A stretch of 21,267 nucleotides of DNA, taken from the IMG/VR virus record IMGVR_UViG_2645727669_000007; one strand, given 5' to 3'. Source of the DNA: a virus. Taxonomy: Duplodnaviria > Heunggongvirae > Uroviricota > Caudoviricetes. Made by a program: the position numbers and the translations under genes. Of the stretch, positions 4,663 through 17,521 are shown in pieces; the stretch's first letter is position 1; every line of letters begins with the position of its first letter. Under the pieces are notes generated by a model. That model made no database searches, was not told the DNA's origin, and was given only the letters and a program-made list of their open reading frames with translations.

Positions 4663-4738
4663 TGGCTCCTCTGACTGGACTCGAACCAGTGACATACGGA
4701 TTAACAGTCCGCCGTTCTACCGACTGAACTACAGAGGA
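4663..4738 (-). tRNA. asnT: tRNA-Asn (anticodon GTT)
   Basis: Reverse complement reads TCCTCTGTAGTTCAGTCGGTAGAACGGCGGACTGTTAATCCGTATGTCACTGGTTCGAGTCCAGTCAGAGGAGCCA, a 76-nt cloverleaf with a CTGTTAA anticodon loop that matches E. coli tRNA-Asn as I recall it. The asnT assignment rests on the neighbouring mtfA and serU genes. Confidence 0.9.
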
Positions 4739-5729: not shown

Positions 5730-5819
5730 GGAGAGATGCCGGAGCGGCTGAACGGACCGGTCTCGAAAACCGGAGTGGGGGCAACTCCACCGGGGGTTCA
5801 AATCCCCCTCTCTCCGCCA
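5730..5819 (+). tRNA. serU: tRNA-Ser (anticodon CGA)
   Basis: 90-nt sequence GGAGAGATGCCGGAGCGGCTGAACGGACCGGTCTCGAAAACCGG...GGGGGTTCAAATCCCCCTCTCTCCGCCA with a long variable arm and terminal CCA. Anticodon loop is CTCGAAA. Confidence 0.9.
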
Positions 5820-5871: not shown

Positions 5872-6897
5872 TTACTTGGAATATTTTCTTGGAATATTTT
5901 CAGGTAACGGGACATCAAGTGTTGGTGAAACTTTAACCTTCCTGTCATAGATTAGCACTTGCCCTTCGGTTTTGTGACCAGAGAAAAGTTGCTTATCCCG
6001 GCTGCTTCCTTCATAGTCTGAAATTCCTTTCGCCTTCAGATCATGAAAGGTGAAGTCGGTTAAAATACCTGAAATTTTTCCAGCACGATTTCTTGCTTCT
6101 ACCCACATTTCGTTAAAGCCTTTGTACATATATCGGTTGCCGTATTGATTGCTGATCACATAGGCAGATTTTGGTAACTGTTTTGCTTTTTCGATCGCTG
6201 CCTGTAATCGTGGACTCCATGCTTTTATCTGTTTTTTTCCGGTTTTCCCTTGCTGGATGAATATCCCGTCGTTTCCAATCTGTTCCCATTTCAGCGATAA
6301 CACATCGGAAACCCTCGCTGCACACAGATAGGCAATTTCCATTGCGATAAAAACAGGAAGAGGTGCAACGCTTAATACTGCCTGGTATTCTTTGTCGGTT
6401 ACATATCGTTCGCGGTTTTTGGCCTTGAATTTACTTACACCTGCACATGGGTTAGCCTTGACGTACCCTCGCTCATACCCCCAACTGTAAACACGGGACA
6501 TACTGCTTTTTTCATGGTTGGCTTGCGTTTTACTCTGCTCCCCTCTTTTGTCCATGTATCGACGGATGTGTTCTGGTTTTATGGAATCCGCTGGTACCTT
6601 ACCGAATACGGCAAGCAACTTTTTTTGATGTTGCAGATAATCTTTTTGTGTTCTTGGACTAAGGTCACTGTAATAGGCGCTGGCGAGGAATTTTTCCCAC
6701 AAGCGACCGAATGTCATTGCACGATCGCGATTATTTACAGTTTCCTCATACTTTTTCCATAAAGCAGCTAAACCATCCTTGATGGCGGTTAGTGTGACAG
6801 ATTCTCTGGATGTTGGTTTCCATACATAACTATATTTATTTGGGTATACATTTGGAGGTAATTTTTCGTGTTCAGGATTTTTCCTTCGTCTTCCCAT
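5872..6897 (-). CDS. int: Prophage tyrosine integrase (lambdoid), tRNA-Ser site
   Basis: 341-aa ORF directly downstream of the serU 3' end. Overlaps an excisionase-like ORF by 1 nt. A catalytic-domain-like region (AYLCAARVSDVLSLKWEQI ... HDLKAKG) is present. Confidence 0.8.
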   Translation of the reverse strand: MGRRRKNPEHEKLPPNVYPNKYSYVWKPTSRESVTLTAIKDGLAALWKKYEETVNNRDRAMTFGRLWEKFLASAYYSDLSPRTQKDYLQHQKKLLAVFGKVPADSIKPEHIRRYMDKRGEQSKTQANHEKSSMSRVYSWGYERGYVKANPCAGVSKFKAKNRERYVTDKEYQAVLSVAPLPVFIAMEIAYLCAARVSDVLSLKWEQIGNDGIFIQQGKTGKKQIKAWSPRLQAAIEKAKQLPKSAYVISNQYGNRYMYKGFNEMWVEARNRAGKISGILTDFTFHDLKAKGISDYEGSSRDKQLFSGHKTEGQVLIYDRKVKVSPTLDVPLPENIPRKYSK

Positions 6898-7158: not shown

Positions 7159-9600
7159 TTAAAAATCAGCCTGACTCGGGATCAGTTTTTGCCAGATAGC
7201 TGAAACGTATTTTGCCTGGTAACGAGCGTCATCAAGTGCATTATGGCGCTCACCTTCGAATGGGATAGCAGTTCTGGCATCGAAGTCTATGGCTTTCCCC
7301 AGCTCAACGATTGTGCGTACATCGCGATCGTTGCAGTAGCGCCATGGGCAGGGGATACCCTGTCGTTCGTATGAACGGCGTAAAATCACGTTGTCGAAGT
7401 TGGCCCCATTACCCCAGACCTGAACAAAAAATTCACCGGAGTTTTCGTCGATAAATTCCCGCAATTGCAGTAGTGCATCATCTAACGGGATTTCATCGGT
7501 CATAATGGCAGACTGCGCTTCACGTGATTGCTTCAGCCACCATTTAATGACGTCACGATCAATGACTCCGCCAGCAGTATCCAGATCGATGGTCTTGCTA
7601 AATTCCGGTCCCATATCTCCGGTTTGTGGATCGAAAAATATTGCGCCTATTGAGATAATCGGGGCATCGGGATTTTTTCCCATGGTTTCAAGGTCGATCA
7701 TCAGATGAATCCCCGCTCTGCTGGTGGATGTGAGCTTATGATGACCATTCACCTTAATTAAGGGATCTGTCGCCTCGCCAGTTTTATTATCGCTGGCGTG
7801 ATGCTGATTGCCGCCAGGGTTCTCCTTGTGTGGATGTTCAGCGCCTTCCATTTCCTCCGGATCATTTTCCTGAACTTCAACCTGATTCTCTTCATCGAAT
7901 GTTTCCTGGTATGTTGCGTCGCCCATCACCGCGCCACAATCAGGGCAGTTGCCGCCACCGCTCTGACCGCAGGCGGTGCAGACTTTTTCCGGTTCCTGTT
8001 GCGCTACTGGTTCGGATTGTTTCGTTTCTGGCTCGTTTTGTAACGCATTTGGGCTGTTTTGTTCCGCTTTTTGGTCGTTCCGTTCCGATTCATGCTGGTT
8101 CTGGTTCACAGAATCGCGAGTCTGGATCCCCTTGACCCATTTCGGATCATTAGGGTCGCTAATCCCCTCAACAAATTCACCACGCGATACAGCAAGTAAC
8201 TTATCGGCGTCAGGCTGGCTGATATTGGCTGCCTGCATAATTTTGTTTACTTCGTCAGCGGTGACTTTTACTTGGTTAGCGGAACTCACCTGCGACTGAG
8301 CATCCAGCGACTGCGCGTTCTGGCCATGTTCAGTTGTATCCGGTTCCATTGTTTCAGTTGTTGCCTGTTCACCTGCCATTGCGTCAGATGGTTGTGGTTT
8401 TTCTTCTTCTGTTTCACGCTCAGTAACCACCTCGCGGTTAATTTTTTCCAGGATATCTTTTTCCGGCGTATGCCGGGCAGCTGTGAGAGTTTCCTTGCTG
8501 GGGTTCTCGTGATCAGTTTCCGTCAAATAGGCGTTGATATACCCCTGAAGGCGTCCCGGGTAGTGATAAAATTCAGGGTGTGCGCTTCGGATAAGTGCAA
8601 AAATAGCGGCGCGGGAATAGTCCAGAATACCCGGGGTTGCACGAAGTGCTGCGGACCATTCTTTGAACGGACTTTCTTTGTTCAGGACTACTTCTTTTGC
8701 GCGACGATAAACGCTGCCCGGAATTTCATAAATATTAAAATCCATCGGAAGTGTGGCTGCTGCAATCTCCACATCCAGTGTGTCGAGGGTGTGTACTAAA
8801 TTCGGATTGCGATCGGTTTTGTTCCCACCGCCAGCATTAGCACCGGAAGCCGTGCGGGTGATGCGTGAAACACGATTTCCTTTCATCCACTCTTTTGTCA
8901 GCAGACCCCGATCAGTGTAGTCAGCGTCCAGGTATGCTTCGAAAAAAGCAGTTATTAGTCCCAGGTCTGAATTACCAGGATTAGGGAAAACTTTGTCAGT
9001 GTCACGAACCAGTTTGTGGAGGTCGCGAATCTCCAGCGAGTCGAGCAGACTGGTTTTATGCGAAATAGCCAGGGCAGTAACAGCCGGTAGTTCTTCAGCC
9101 CGTGCAATGTGTAATGCCTGGAGTTCGTCGCGTGAAACGTGCGTTACTGGTTTTTCGCTGCCGTGTTGAGCAAGCCAACGAATGGGCAGTTCCTGACCGG
9201 AGACAGGCAGAAGCATGCTCTCCTCAATCTCAGTCATGTCTTCGCCGTTGATGTTGGTATTGTCAGTGCTGGCTGGTTTGTCCTGAACAGAGGGGGAAGG
9301 GCCGATAAATGTCATTGTGATGCCATCTTTCCCGCCTTTTTCATAGCGGTTGCAGAATTCAGTATCAAACACGCCTTCTGGCGGAAGGTCGTCAACAACG
9401 GGCAAATTGACGCGGACGGGTTTTTTAAAGTCGTCTTCATCATAATCGTTGTCATCCATTGCGGTAATGCAGCGGGAGATTGCAACAGATAATTTTTTTG
9501 CTGTAGTCCAGTAAAAACCACCTTTAATTCCTAGGCGTTTTCTTACTTTGTCATTTTTTGCTTCGCAATATAGTGCAAATTCTTCTTTATCAGTGCTCAT
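7159..9600 (-). CDS. RecE-family (exodeoxyribonuclease VIII-like) prophage protein with C-terminal DEDDh 3'-5' exonuclease domain
   Basis: 813-aa ORF. The C-terminus has DEDDh motifs: LMIDLETMG (exo I), WGNGANFDNVIL (exo II), HNALDDARY (exo III). The central region is acidic and low-complexity with a CTACGQSGGGNCPDCG zinc-ribbon-like motif. The N-terminal region resembles RecE from memory. Confidence 0.65.
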   Translation of the reverse strand: MSTDKEEFALYCEAKNDKVRKRLGIKGGFYWTTAKKLSVAISRCITAMDDNDYDEDDFKKPVRVNLPVVDDLPPEGVFDTEFCNRYEKGGKDGITMTFIGPSPSVQDKPASTDNTNINGEDMTEIEESMLLPVSGQELPIRWLAQHGSEKPVTHVSRDELQALHIARAEELPAVTALAISHKTSLLDSLEIRDLHKLVRDTDKVFPNPGNSDLGLITAFFEAYLDADYTDRGLLTKEWMKGNRVSRITRTASGANAGGGNKTDRNPNLVHTLDTLDVEIAAATLPMDFNIYEIPGSVYRRAKEVVLNKESPFKEWSAALRATPGILDYSRAAIFALIRSAHPEFYHYPGRLQGYINAYLTETDHENPSKETLTAARHTPEKDILEKINREVVTERETEEEKPQPSDAMAGEQATTETMEPDTTEHGQNAQSLDAQSQVSSANQVKVTADEVNKIMQAANISQPDADKLLAVSRGEFVEGISDPNDPKWVKGIQTRDSVNQNQHESERNDQKAEQNSPNALQNEPETKQSEPVAQQEPEKVCTACGQSGGGNCPDCGAVMGDATYQETFDEENQVEVQENDPEEMEGAEHPHKENPGGNQHHASDNKTGEATDPLIKVNGHHKLTSTSRAGIHLMIDLETMGKNPDAPIISIGAIFFDPQTGDMGPEFSKTIDLDTAGGVIDRDVIKWWLKQSREAQSAIMTDEIPLDDALLQLREFIDENSGEFFVQVWGNGANFDNVILRRSYERQGIPCPWRYCNDRDVRTIVELGKAIDFDARTAIPFEGERHNALDDARYQAKYVSAIWQKLIPSQADF

Positions 9601-10239: not shown

Positions 10240-10297
10240 AAAAAGGGCGGCAGAGCAGTCACGGAGTAAAACTGATACCGCCAAACGTCACCAGAAA
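10240..10297 (-). ncRNA. dicF: DicF small RNA (ftsZ-targeting sRNA) with intrinsic terminator
   Basis: Minus strand reads TTTCTGGTGACGTTTGGCGGTATCAGTTTTACTCCGTGACTGCTCTGCCGCCCTTTTT. This matches the DicF sequence as I recall it and includes a GGCGG...CCGCC stem plus U-run. It lies between the ydfC-like and dicB genes, as in the Qin dicB operon. Confidence 0.7.
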
Positions 10298-14462: not shown

Positions 14463-14700
14463 CGAGATTAAAGTGCATTAGTTCAGATGTAAATTGACAT
14501 TTTGTGGCACAGGGTAGAGCTAGCGTGGTTGTCCGCTTTGTGCCAAAAGCAGACATTGATAACATTGAGATATGTTAATTTATAGGGAGCAGCTCAAGGC
14601 CCACTGGAACTTCCAGTTTTTGCCCCTGAAACCGTTCCCAATGAGCACTTCCATCTGAAGACTGCGCAGTCTTAGTTTTCGTTGCCTTTAGTTTATCCCT

Positions 14701-16035
14701 TTATGATACCGATAAAAACTTTTTTTTAATTTCTGCTGCCGTTTTCTCCATGCTGGGATATACAGTGCTTTCGGATATATTAAGCTGCGCCAGCTCTTCC
14801 AGAATTTTATTTTTGTTCGCTATCTCCACTCTGTTAAGAGGAAACTCAGCATCTGTTTCCGGTAAAATGGGATCAAGTCCGAACAGAAGAAAAGCTCCTG
14901 CCTGAGATTGTATGCGTTCATTATTTATTTTAGCCTTAAGGAAAACAACTTTCCTTAAGTCATCAGGAATTATTCTGTTTCTAAAATATGATTTTTCATT
15001 CTGTATAAGGTCTGCAAGTTTATCAGTGAGTTCAGATAACTCCATATTACCTTTTCTGGAATCAGAGGAGGACAATTTTTCCAACTCTTCGTAAGATAAA
15101 AGTGATAAGTTTGCTATACAGCTCACTGTATCTGAGTCGAAATATTTAATTTTCTTTCTATTTGTTGAAAACGAAATCACCTGTCCGTTTTCATTGGGGT
15201 TCGAACAGCAAGCAAAATATAATGCTATCAGTGGGTTAGATGTAATGTCTAAGAGTCTTGTAGGCAAGCCATAATGCTGCATGCGGACAAGTTTATCAAT
15301 CGTAAATTTATCCTCCTTAAATTCATTTGGTCTTGCGCTGAGTATTTCACGTACTAAATCAGATTCTGAAGCAAGATGCCTGTACGTCCCGTTTTGATTT
15401 TTTCTGTAAAGAGAGGGGACAAGCTCATATGAGCTTTTAGAGTGTCCACGATAAAAGGTAATGAGACCATCACGAAAGTTTTTCTTTATGAAATTAAGAT
15501 AATCTATAATATTCTCGACTACTGGGTATGTTTGTTTTTTTAATTTGATTGTACCTTTGGGGTGACTATTTTGTTTGTTTAAACCAAGTGATTCCAGAAC
15601 AATATTTAAATCCTTATTTTTTACTGCCCAATGTGTACGGCTTAACCCGAAAGATCCTAGCCCTAGGGTTTCTTTATATAATGTCGTTTGGGGATTCGTT
15701 ATTTCTCCAAAATTATGATTAATCTTGAAAGAAAATAAAATATCGCCACCATCTTTACGTAAATTTCTTATTTCCCCAAGTCTGATCCTGATGTACTTGT
15801 TTGTATCATATTCATCATCTTTTGTATAAGTTTCGGTCATGAACAATACTGGTAGCTTGGCGAGTTCTCTTAAGGTATCGGGTCTTATTGGTGTTAATTT
15901 ACTGTAAATATCGCTTGGGGTGCCTTCCAGCATGCGGGACATCGAGAATCTTTCCTCGCCTTCTGTAAGCCCTGGGTCCATACACGGCCAGCGGTCAAAA
16001 ACGTCCGGTTCTCCGGCCATGATTAAGCTAAACAT
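14701..16035 (-). CDS. FRG-domain protein (defense-associated moron)
   Basis: 444-aa ORF with AGGAG 6 nt upstream of the ATG. FRG-domain signature: ITFYRGHSKSSYELVPSLYR and MQHYGLPTRLLDITSNPLIALYFA. Markedly AT-rich and in opposite orientation to the flanking prophage genes. Confidence 0.65.
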   Translation of the reverse strand: MFSLIMAGEPDVFDRWPCMDPGLTEGEERFSMSRMLEGTPSDIYSKLTPIRPDTLRELAKLPVLFMTETYTKDDEYDTNKYIRIRLGEIRNLRKDGGDILFSFKINHNFGEITNPQTTLYKETLGLGSFGLSRTHWAVKNKDLNIVLESLGLNKQNSHPKGTIKLKKQTYPVVENIIDYLNFIKKNFRDGLITFYRGHSKSSYELVPSLYRKNQNGTYRHLASESDLVREILSARPNEFKEDKFTIDKLVRMQHYGLPTRLLDITSNPLIALYFACCSNPNENGQVISFSTNRKKIKYFDSDTVSCIANLSLLSYEELEKLSSSDSRKGNMELSELTDKLADLIQNEKSYFRNRIIPDDLRKVVFLKAKINNERIQSQAGAFLLFGLDPILPETDAEFPLNRVEIANKNKILEELAQLNISESTVYPSMEKTAAEIKKKFLSVS

Positions 16036-16528
16036 CGCAATCTCCTAAATTTACTTGCTAAAGTCAGTGTACTTTTATCATGTTGCTTCATTGTGTATGA
16101 AAGTAACATTGGTTGTCCATGCTCGTTTGTCTCTCATAATTCACAAATTTGCGAATATTTTTTATAAAAAATTCAAAACAGATAGGTTGACACAATCAAA
16201 ATTCACAAAGGGCACCTGCTTCTAATGTGGTTACGGCCCGATCATACGGGCAATGTCTTTCCATTATTGAAAACTCCGGGATCAACCATGATATATGAAG
16301 TCTCTTGCTATCCAGTTAAGTAAATGTCTGCTTCTCGCTCAAAGTGGGCTAGAAGGTTAGCTTGCGTCGGACTTGGCGTATTTAAAGAAGTGCTGGTGGT
16401 GACTGGTTATTGTGTTCCATTTCTACAGAACAAAATCACAGAAACTATACCCAATAGTTGTATTGAATCACTGACGAGACAGCCTCATATTTATCAGGAC
16501 TGATGTACGTCCAATACAGGAGGTTGTG

Positions 16529-16618
16529 GTGCTGGTTCTCAAATGTGCGCTGGCTATTGCTGCCTTAATGGCAATTTATTGCCTTGCTGTTGTTCTTATG
16601 GATCGCCTTTCTGACTGA
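16529..16618 (+). CDS. Candidate 29-aa hydrophobic peptide (type I toxin-like)
   Basis: AGGAGG at 16518..16523, then a 5-nt spacer and a GTG start. Product MLVLKCALAIAALMAIYCLAVVLMDRLSD has a single predicted transmembrane helix. Not in the ORF track because it is under 60 aa. Confidence 0.25.
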   Translation: MLVLKCALAIAALMAIYCLAVVLMDRLSD

Positions 16619-16829
16619 TTTCATATTGGCGAGGTAACGGGAGTTAAGTAGAATGGCTGCGGGTGCTTGAGGCTATCTGTCTCAGGCATGAACACCAAAG
16701 GCAGATAGAGAAAAGCCCCAGTTAACATTACGCGTCCTGCAAGACGCTTAACATTAATCTGAGGCTCAATCTATGAACGGCAAATCTAGGTTAGCCTCTT
16801 ACGTGCCGAAAGGCAAGGAGAAGCAGGCT

Positions 16830-16985
16830 ATGAAGCAGCAAAAGGCGATGTTAATCGCCCTGATCGTCATCTGTTTAACCGTCATAGTGACGGCACTGGT
16901 AACGAGGAAAGACCTCTGCGAGGTACGAATCCGAACCGGCCAGACGGAGGTCGCTGTCTTCACAGCTTACGAACCTGAGGAGTAA
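16830..16985 (+). CDS. hok: Hok/Gef-family type I toxin (HokD/RelF-like)
   Basis: 51-aa product MKQQKAMLIALIVICLTVIVTALVTRKDLCEVRIRTGQTEVAVFTAYEPEE with AAGGAG upstream. The ORF-track entry at 16773 is an in-frame upstream extension. Confidence 0.8.
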   Translation: MKQQKAMLIALIVICLTVIVTALVTRKDLCEVRIRTGQTEVAVFTAYEPEE

Positions 16986-17128
16986 GAGACCTGGCGGGGG
17001 AGAAATCCCTCGCCACCTCTGATGTGTCAGGCATCCTCAACGCACCCGCACTTAACCCGCTTCGGCGTTTTTTCCGTTGATTAACTCTAGTTATTAGAGA
17101 ACCGAACTTTTATTGATGGGGCAGGGAG

Positions 17129-17521
17129 ATGAAGAAACTTGTTTTAGTCGCAGGTGTAATGATTGCAACAGTAATGTTGGGAGGGTGTGCAGCAAAGGTC
17201 GATCCAGCGTTGAAAGCAGAAGCAATGAAGCCACTAACATGTAATGATGAAAAGCAATGTGACTTTTATTGGAAACGAGCGCAATTCTGGTTGGCTAATA
17301 ATTCCTCATGGAAAATTCAAACGGCGACAGACACGCTAATTTCCACTTATAATCCCTCTCCAAATAGTCCATTCCTCGCTTATCAAGTGAGTAAAATGCC
17401 AAATGAAGATGGATCCTCAAGAATTTTCATCAAGCCTTTTTGCGATAATATGTTTGGCTGTCAACCAAACCCCTATCAGGCAGTTGTTTCCTTTAAAAAC
17501 TTCGTTAAAACAGGGCAGTAG
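17129..17521 (+). CDS. Prophage lipoprotein (signal peptide with LGGC lipobox)
   Basis: MKKLVLVAGVMIATVMLGGCAAK N-terminus with GGGAG upstream, followed by a clean intrinsic terminator. Confidence 0.7.
   Translation: MKKLVLVAGVMIATVMLGGCAAKVDPALKAEAMKPLTCNDEKQCDFYWKRAQFWLANNSSWKIQTATDTLISTYNPSPNSPFLAYQVSKMPNEDGSSRIFIKPFCDNMFGCQPNPYQAVVSFKNFVKTGQ

Follow-up and report, generated by a model that had tools for sequence, protein, structure and literature searches.

Positions 16529–16618 of the DNA analysed here, a 21,267-nt stretch of a lambdoid (Rac/Qin/mEp460-like) E. coli prophage (in the following, the window), very probably form a gene that is translated and selected as a protein. It would be a gene of the lambdoid (Qin/mEp460-like) prophages of Escherichia, and its 29-residue product, MLVLKCALAIAALMAIYCLAVVLMDRLSD, is predicted to be a single-pass microprotein of the inner membrane. 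The reading that we favour on balance is that this microprotein is expressed both from a promoter of its own and by read-through of the surrounding operon, and that it acts by helix–helix contact within the membrane.

The window carries on its minus strand an integrase gene (5872–6897), the gene of a RecE-type exonuclease VIII (7159–9600) and the DicF sRNA gene (10245–10296; 76.7 bits). A DUF977 gene lies between DicF and an FRG-domain gene (14701–16035, minus strand), which matches the candidate defence family PDC-S15 of PADLOC (E 2.6e-99). The small gene is followed by the hok/sok locus on the plus strand (16661–16985), which is recognized by the Rfam model RF01794 (sok/hok-leader; 16661–16835, 110 bits, E 1.3e-24), comprises a mok frame (16773–16985) and hok (16832–16985), and is annotated as hokD in homologous records. 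Beyond it follow a DUF968/YdfU gene, RusA and the antiterminator Q. The AT-rich character that a preliminary description had ascribed to this region is roughly right, as the GC content is 0.43 at 16300–16599, 0.34–0.40 in the FRG gene and 0.48–0.51 in hok. Close to the integrase gene, but outside it, are two tRNA genes (4666–4738, minus strand; 5730–5816, plus strand), the nearer of which is a possible attachment site. Furthermore, a 130-aa ORF at 17129–17521 (plus strand), starting MKKLVLVAGVMIATVMLGGC, has a signal resembling that of lipoproteins, with LGGC as a lipobox-like motif; it had no match in Pfam or PADLOC, and in related prophages its slot holds rem or other small genes.

Gene anatomy and coding signature

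Direct reading of the sequence places the Shine-Dalgarno (SD) site AGGAGG at 16518–16523 on the plus strand, followed by the 5-nt spacer TTGTG, a GTG codon at 16529 that opens a frame of 29 sense codons, and the stop codon TGA (16616–16618); the preliminary description had given exactly this layout. A mechanically compiled ORF list contained a 30-aa form that begins at an in-frame GTG at 16526. This codon is not conserved, other loci reading TCG, an out-of-frame ATG, TTG or similar, and because the GTG at 16529 is invariant the start was assigned to the latter. Translation would proceed from this codon by means of a strong AGGAGG that appears structurally unmasked. The peptide has a GRAVY value of 1.8 and a 19-residue apolar core (residues 6–24; mean Kyte–Doolittle value 2.68), which bears out the single hydrophobic helix proposed earlier. 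Its charges are a single lysine before the helix (K5) and those of an acidic tail, DRLSD, after it. With 29 aa and a predicted transmembrane helix, the product falls among the hydrophobic membrane peptides of <60 aa.

By itself, the combination of SD site and ORF is within chance expectation: AGGAGG with a start codon at 4–9 nt and an ORF of ≥25 aa occurs twice in the window, compared to 0.7 ± 0.9 times in 200 dinucleotide shuffles. What raises the small ORF above chance is its conservation together with the pattern of substitutions over codon positions. Both were studied in a set of 98 loci (numbered L001 onward), consisting of the window and 97 loci that come from genomes of E. coli, of phages and of species representatives as well as from IMG/VR contigs. 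The GTG start is present in all 98 loci, as is an SD site reading GGAGG or GGAGA, and the frame has 29 codons in 97 of them. The exception (L006), a prophage remnant into which an IS element has inserted, has lost the stop codon through an 11-nt deletion. Start, stop and SD are all preserved through a nucleotide divergence of 20–23%.

Among 21 distinct ORF sequences, pN/pS was 0.28 in the proposed frame, the lowest value of all six frames, the other five ranging from 0.46 to 1.05. Counting each derived allele once, 24 synonymous and 20 non-synonymous events were found in the small ORF, where the mix of transitions and transversions observed predicts 30% synonymous (binomial p = 6e-4; the counts are phylogenetically non-independent, being derived from 21 distinct ORF sequences of one genus). 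The synonymous excess is significant in the proposed frame only and in none of the five others. No substitution makes a stop in the proposed frame, whereas four of the other five frames gain stops. All replacements in the peptide are conservative (A/V/T, V/I/L/A, M/V/L, L/F, D/E/N, R/H, S/T, K/T), and the residues C6, I10, I16-Y17-C18-L19 and M24 are strictly conserved.

The most telling of the three coding tests is the diversity by codon position, calculated as mean pairwise diversity over 55 distinct modules with full-length homology. In the small ORF it amounts to 0.006 at positions 1+2 versus 0.081 at position 3, a 13-fold difference; in the flanking DNA of the same modules it is 0.079 in the upstream non-coding part and 0.056 in the promoter and 5′ UTR. 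Third positions of the small ORF thus vary at the neutral rate, while the sequence of the peptide is held almost constant. The corresponding values for hok (16832–16984, the same 55 modules) are 0.020 at positions 1+2 and 0.019 at position 3, a pattern consistent with constraint on the RNA (through the overlap with mok, the Sok target and the fold-back elements) no less than on the protein, and the coding signature of the small gene is stronger than that of its neighbour. The small ORF accordingly shows what marks a small gene, namely a conserved start, stop and ribosome-binding site (RBS) and purifying selection that is confined to the proposed frame. A frame not conserved in homologous regions had been named in the preliminary description as grounds for refuting its proposal, and across the 98 loci the frame clearly withstood this check.

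The same data bear on an explanation in which the frame is an untranslated chance ORF within a conserved non-coding segment, which would serve as a recombination anchor or as regulatory DNA beside the cargo hotspot described below. Such an explanation would agree with the frequency of the bare pattern in random sequence of this size, with the fact that the NCBI pipeline leaves the frame uncalled in nearly all genomes, and with the position of the segment at a boundary of mosaic exchange. A non-coding element, however, is not expected to vary at every third position at the rate of the flanking non-coding DNA and hardly at all at the two others, and both the restriction of the synonymous excess to a single frame and the retention of start, stop and SD in divergent loci speak against it. 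We therefore regard a chance ORF as highly improbable.

Distribution and modular inheritance

A query of 151 nt centred on the small ORF matched 2641 of 5426 complete E. coli genomes, with a coverage of ≥80% in 1890 of them and almost always with one copy per genome; about a third of the complete E. coli genomes thus carry the small gene. Carriers include the LF82, REL606 and BL21(DE3) lineages. Common as it is (at least 1890 of 5426 genomes), the gene is almost never annotated in RefSeq: of the 60 RefSeq E. coli records listed, 59 have no annotated feature where the query matches, so that the term “unannotated” used in the preliminary description was apt. The sole annotated CDS among those 60 is WP_000960667.1, a 29-aa “hypothetical protein” in NZ_CP020933.1. 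An exact-sequence look-up revealed sporadic deposits as “hypothetical” or “membrane protein”, such as ACT39199.1 of REL606 and ACT43394.1 of BL21(DE3).

Among 50,697 phage genomes, four contain the small gene (Tritos, Evi, mEp460_ev081 and HannyBb). All are viable lambdoid phages of Escherichia, and none of the four records annotates the gene on the correct strand. In HannyBb (L001), two minus-strand “hypothetical protein” genes (2454–2639 and 2636–2743) are annotated that span the small ORF and the hok promoter; these are probably miscalls, as the antisense frames gain stops in other loci and show no synonymous excess. The species representatives that carry the small gene belong to E. coli/Shigella, E. 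ruysiae and E. albertii, and the gene was found only in lambdoid prophages of Escherichia/Shigella. Three contigs of 2.6–3.3 kb from metagenome-assembled genomes (MAGs) labelled as Collinsella, “Candidatus Scatousia” and Haemophilus (L012, L015 and L016) contain the Escherichia prophage segment with 90–93% peptide identity; most likely, they represent binning contamination and not a real host range.

Most small-protein discovery has been carried out in E. coli K-12. At the hokD locus of the Qin prophage of K-12 MG1655 (L098; 1643500–1648500), relBE replaced the segment and the small gene is therefore missing: where the window has the small ORF, the hok promoter and the hok leader, this prophage has relB-relE, and hokD matches the hok of the window only from ~16816 onward, at 98.5%.

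The peptide has no recognizable relatives in known families. A HMMER search of 1.84 billion representative proteins with the 30-aa form yielded nine clusters, all ≥83% identical, and no distant relatives. When three peptide variants were compared to Pfam and NCBIfam at E values up to 10, two had no hits and the third gave only weak ATP-synthase-c/ODV-E18 noise, and profile searches of PHROG and PADLOC with the small peptide returned nothing. Literature searches by peptide string, accession and topic found no publication on the small ORF, and the peptide is absent from the MetaRibo-Seq supplements. The small gene therefore adds to the prophage-encoded small membrane proteins a member that has no homologous family.

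In about 95 loci the small ORF is preceded by 32 unrelated upstream contexts, and the small gene is the right edge of a cargo hotspot that corresponds to ~14500–16325 of the window. Besides the FRG gene of this window, the cargo of this site comprises SIR2, DUF4145, DUF262 with an AAA ATPase, a TPR protein and QueH. The small gene can thus serve as a fixed right-hand landmark for mining a lambdoid cargo site with many candidate defence genes. Homology to the window starts at 16320–16339 in 75 loci and ends at 17060–17079, past hok, in 70. In the commonest inherited block, which hence extends from ~16325 to ~17075 (~750 bp), ~200 nt of non-coding DNA precede the small gene and hok/sok.

On its left side, this conserved module most often begins at a stem-loop of the plus strand (16326–16349, GTCTGCTTCTCGCTCAAAGTGGGC; consensus GTCCGCTTCTCGCTCAAAGCGGAC in L004, L005, L011 and many IMG/VR loci), which is a boundary mark and not a proven part of the gene. 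It has a 7-bp stem and adjoins more than 20 unrelated upstream sequences; its left arm varies in a partly G-U-compatible manner, and its right arm is nearly constant. As it has no T-run, it is not an obvious terminator; recombination at the cargo site may have its joint here. A 59-aa ORF at 16324–16503 was dismissed as a gene, since its ATG lies in the variable arm of this hairpin and is missing from most loci.

In several divergent prophages (L001/L008, L007, L009/L022-24) homology begins only at the −35 box of the candidate promoter of the small gene, and in L001, L007, L008 and L009 it is confined to promoter and ORF. In L007, L011 and L013 it ends ~15 nt past the stop codon. Among the 90 loci with enough downstream sequence, hok is located downstream of the small ORF in 86 and is absent in four, with an IS element in L006 and a convergent DUF1971 gene replacing hok in L007 and L011, where it is annotated. 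The small ORF is intact without hok in L007, L011 and L013. Conversely, many hok loci are devoid of the small ORF; in 933W and other Stx phages, for example, the match to the window does not begin before ~16641. Promoter and ORF together are therefore a separable module, which is usually but not necessarily linked to hok.

Expression signals and the link to hok

A candidate sigma-70 promoter of the small gene is located at 16463–16491 on the plus strand (−35 TTGAAT, 16463–16468; 17-nt spacer; −10 CATATT, 16486–16491). The predicted transcription start at ~16497–16499 leaves a 5′ UTR of ~30 nt. The site scores 8/12 (4+4), the cut-off of the first promoter scan being 9/12; a looser scan recovered it in 31 of 37 distinct variants, compared to 34 of 37 for the known hok promoter. 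CATATT keeps the same distance from the GTG (−43) in all 98 loci, and the −35 box reads TTGA(A/T)(T/G) in 80 of them, TCTCAT in 17 and ATGCGA in a single E. albertii locus. Since the −35 is lost in 18 of the 98 loci, the dedicated promoter is not universal. In L001/L008, L007, L009/L022-24 and L006 both hexamers are kept even though the spacer and the upstream DNA have diverged, as would be expected of a functional promoter. A promoter belonging to the small gene is thus probable from its conservation, and would make expression from the resident prophage possible. Moreover, the gene has the orientation of the phage early-right operon and would in that case also be transcribed during lytic growth. 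The TCTCAT replacement (L048, L096, L094, L035 and others; corresponding to 16461–16479 of the window) creates a near-perfect palindrome, TCTCATCA-A-TGATGAGA, just 5′ of the conserved −10, which could represent the loss of the promoter or the gain of a protein-binding site.

The hok promoter (TTGGCG-17-TAGAAT, 16626–16654, plus strand) starts 8 nt past the stop codon of the small gene, and a terminator scan of the interval between the small ORF and this promoter found none. The sole terminator-like hairpin on the plus strand (16570–16583) was rejected as an attenuator or terminator, as it has only 5 bp, lies inside the small ORF and varies in a way that is explained by synonymous changes. With no intervening terminator, read-through into hok is likely, and the transcript probably runs on into hok/sok with the small gene as its 5′ cistron. 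The predicted fold of the mRNA from 16497 to 16660 has −43.8 kcal/mol, compared to −43.1 ± 4.0 for shuffled sequences (z = −0.17). The SD site is predicted to be unmasked, and the SD pairing in the minimum free energy (MFE) structure uses the window-specific codons GCC TTA that other variants lack. Masking of the SD by an anti-SD CCTC (16483–16486) in read-through transcripts was discarded as well, since this motif is not conserved in divergent variants.

The proximity to hok invites an explanation in which the small ORF is the first cistron or uORF of an extended hok transcript, and in which the act of transcription or translation matters and the peptide does not; it would interfere with or prime the hok promoter, or alter the fold of the 5′-extended mRNA. 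The short distance to the hok −35 without a terminator, the presence of hok downstream in the large majority of the informative loci and the inclusion of both genes in the commonest inherited block would all be in line with such a role. Selection, however, acts on the amino-acid sequence, with positions 1+2 far less diverse than position 3 and with only conservative replacements. Furthermore, the small ORF stays intact in the three loci without hok, and many hok loci do without it, among them those of 933W, of other Stx phages and of K-12 (hokD). A purely regulatory frame is consequently quite unlikely in our view.

Mode of action and comparison with known systems

The preliminary description had seen in this gene the architecture of a type I toxin. 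According to this explanation, the peptide would damage the inner membrane, and an unrecognised antisense or trans-acting sRNA would silence its mRNA. A length of 29 aa, one hydrophobic helix and a short charged tail are indeed reminiscent of TisB, ZorO, Ibs and Fst-type toxins, and the small gene adjoins another type I system, hok/sok. Size and hydrophobicity are, however, the only features that fit. Profiles of the toxin families Ldr, TisB, Ibs, ShoB, ZorO, DinQ and Fst in Pfam and NCBIfam did not match the small peptide, nor did Hok models. For the antisense small RNA that had been suspected on the opposite strand, a promoter scan of 16000–17200 found no minus-strand candidate in the window. 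A recurrent minus-strand site, TTAACT-18-TAAAAT (corresponding to ~16612–16650), was seen in 15 of 37 distinct variants. Situated at the 3′ end of the ORF, it stands back-to-back with the hok promoter and is directed into the small ORF. Were it active in those variants, an antisense transcript across the small ORF would result, but it is absent from most variants, and in the window its −10 is destroyed and reads TGAAAT.

The longest inverted match within 16300–16660 comprises 12 nt at 83%, short of the ~18 nt or more expected for an antitoxin, and no complementary segment of >12 nt is found in the conserved upstream 200 nt. Weak promoters and trans sRNAs encoded at a distance may nevertheless have escaped these sequence scans. 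This upstream DNA, a possible host of a divergent sRNA, is moreover replaced in divergent loci that keep the small ORF. It was also rejected as a structured RNA or sRNA antitoxin in its own right, given z-scores of +0.33 and +0.40 on the two strands, the lack of an Rfam match and the lack of complementarity to the ORF mRNA. The RNA of the small ORF itself is no better folded than shuffles on either strand (z = −0.17 and −0.61), and with its predicted 5′ UTR of ~30 nt it displays neither the masked RBS nor the high degree of structure of a toxin mRNA. An origin of the segment as a decayed hok duplicate, with leader and truncated toxin, was considered and dropped: BLASTP of the small peptide versus Hok gave no alignment at E values up to 100, 16300–16640 has no nucleotide similarity to 16641–17100, and 16661 is the first position covered by the Rfam sok match.

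In established type I systems (hok, tisB, ldr, ibs, zor), translation of the toxin mRNA is kept repressed. The small gene has an exposed consensus SD and a conserved, constitutive-looking promoter. This is the opposite of such silencing, a cell could hardly afford it in an unguarded toxin, and it thus argues against a killer of this kind. The label of a type I toxin is not supported for the small gene, which is probably not an RNA-silenced killer; as a whole, we consider this explanation unlikely. A purely hydrophobic 29-mer could be toxic to membranes even so.

As for the microprotein reading that we prefer, the distribution of charges, with K5 on one side of the helix and the acidic D-R-L-S-D tail on the other, favours an N-in/C-out topology. 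The strict conservation of C6, I10, the I16-Y17-C18-L19 stretch and M24 suggests helix–helix contact in the membrane, which might take the form of self-association or of binding to a larger membrane protein. Other bacterial small membrane proteins act via helix–helix contact.

A further possibility, to which we give little credence, is that the peptide is a membrane effector independent of any RNA and tied to the hotspot and to hok, either as a killer or exclusion peptide during phage infection or as a membrane partner that tunes Hok. If it were true, the ~750-bp block, instead of being a simple hok/sok locus, would form a module of two peptides. Current concepts stay unchanged unless a phenotype ties the small gene to hok or to phage exclusion.

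The E. coli type I toxins TisB, ZorO, IbsC, ShoB, DinQ and Ldr have 19–35 residues and one dominant hydrophobic helix, and are encoded by stand-alone mini-genes often missed by annotation. The small gene shares their size class, the single helix and the organization as a stand-alone mini-gene, and is located next to another type I system. In contrast to these toxins, it has no match to their families, no antisense or divergent sRNA was found for it, it has no long structured 5′ UTR or sequestered RBS, and its helix is uniformly apolar without interspersed charges. Like Hok/Gef, its product is a prophage-borne small membrane peptide, and it is encoded in the same orientation as hok and usually co-inherited with it. 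However, with its 29 residues it is shorter than Hok, which has 51, it lacks a periplasmic domain and any sequence similarity to Hok/Gef, its gene has neither a mok-like overlapping frame nor fbi, tac or sokT elements, and either gene occurs independently of the other.

A phage moron is a promoter-gene-terminator cassette inserted between lambdoid backbone genes. The small gene is likewise compact, with a promoter-like site of its own, a GC content below that of the backbone and a position between the replication genes and Q, a stretch in which accessory genes collect, but it has no terminator of its own, and it is the conserved right flank of a variable cargo site instead of variable cargo. 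In its mode of working, the closest likeness is probably to KdpF, AcrZ, MgtS, MgrB and CydX, which bind larger membrane proteins. The small peptide differs from these in having no homology to them, in being encoded by prophages of one genus only and in not being encoded beside a partner gene. It resembles them in size class and in its single transmembrane helix flanked by short charged ends, and likewise has an ordinary SD site and start codon, purifying selection on the residues of the helix, and no RNA antitoxin.
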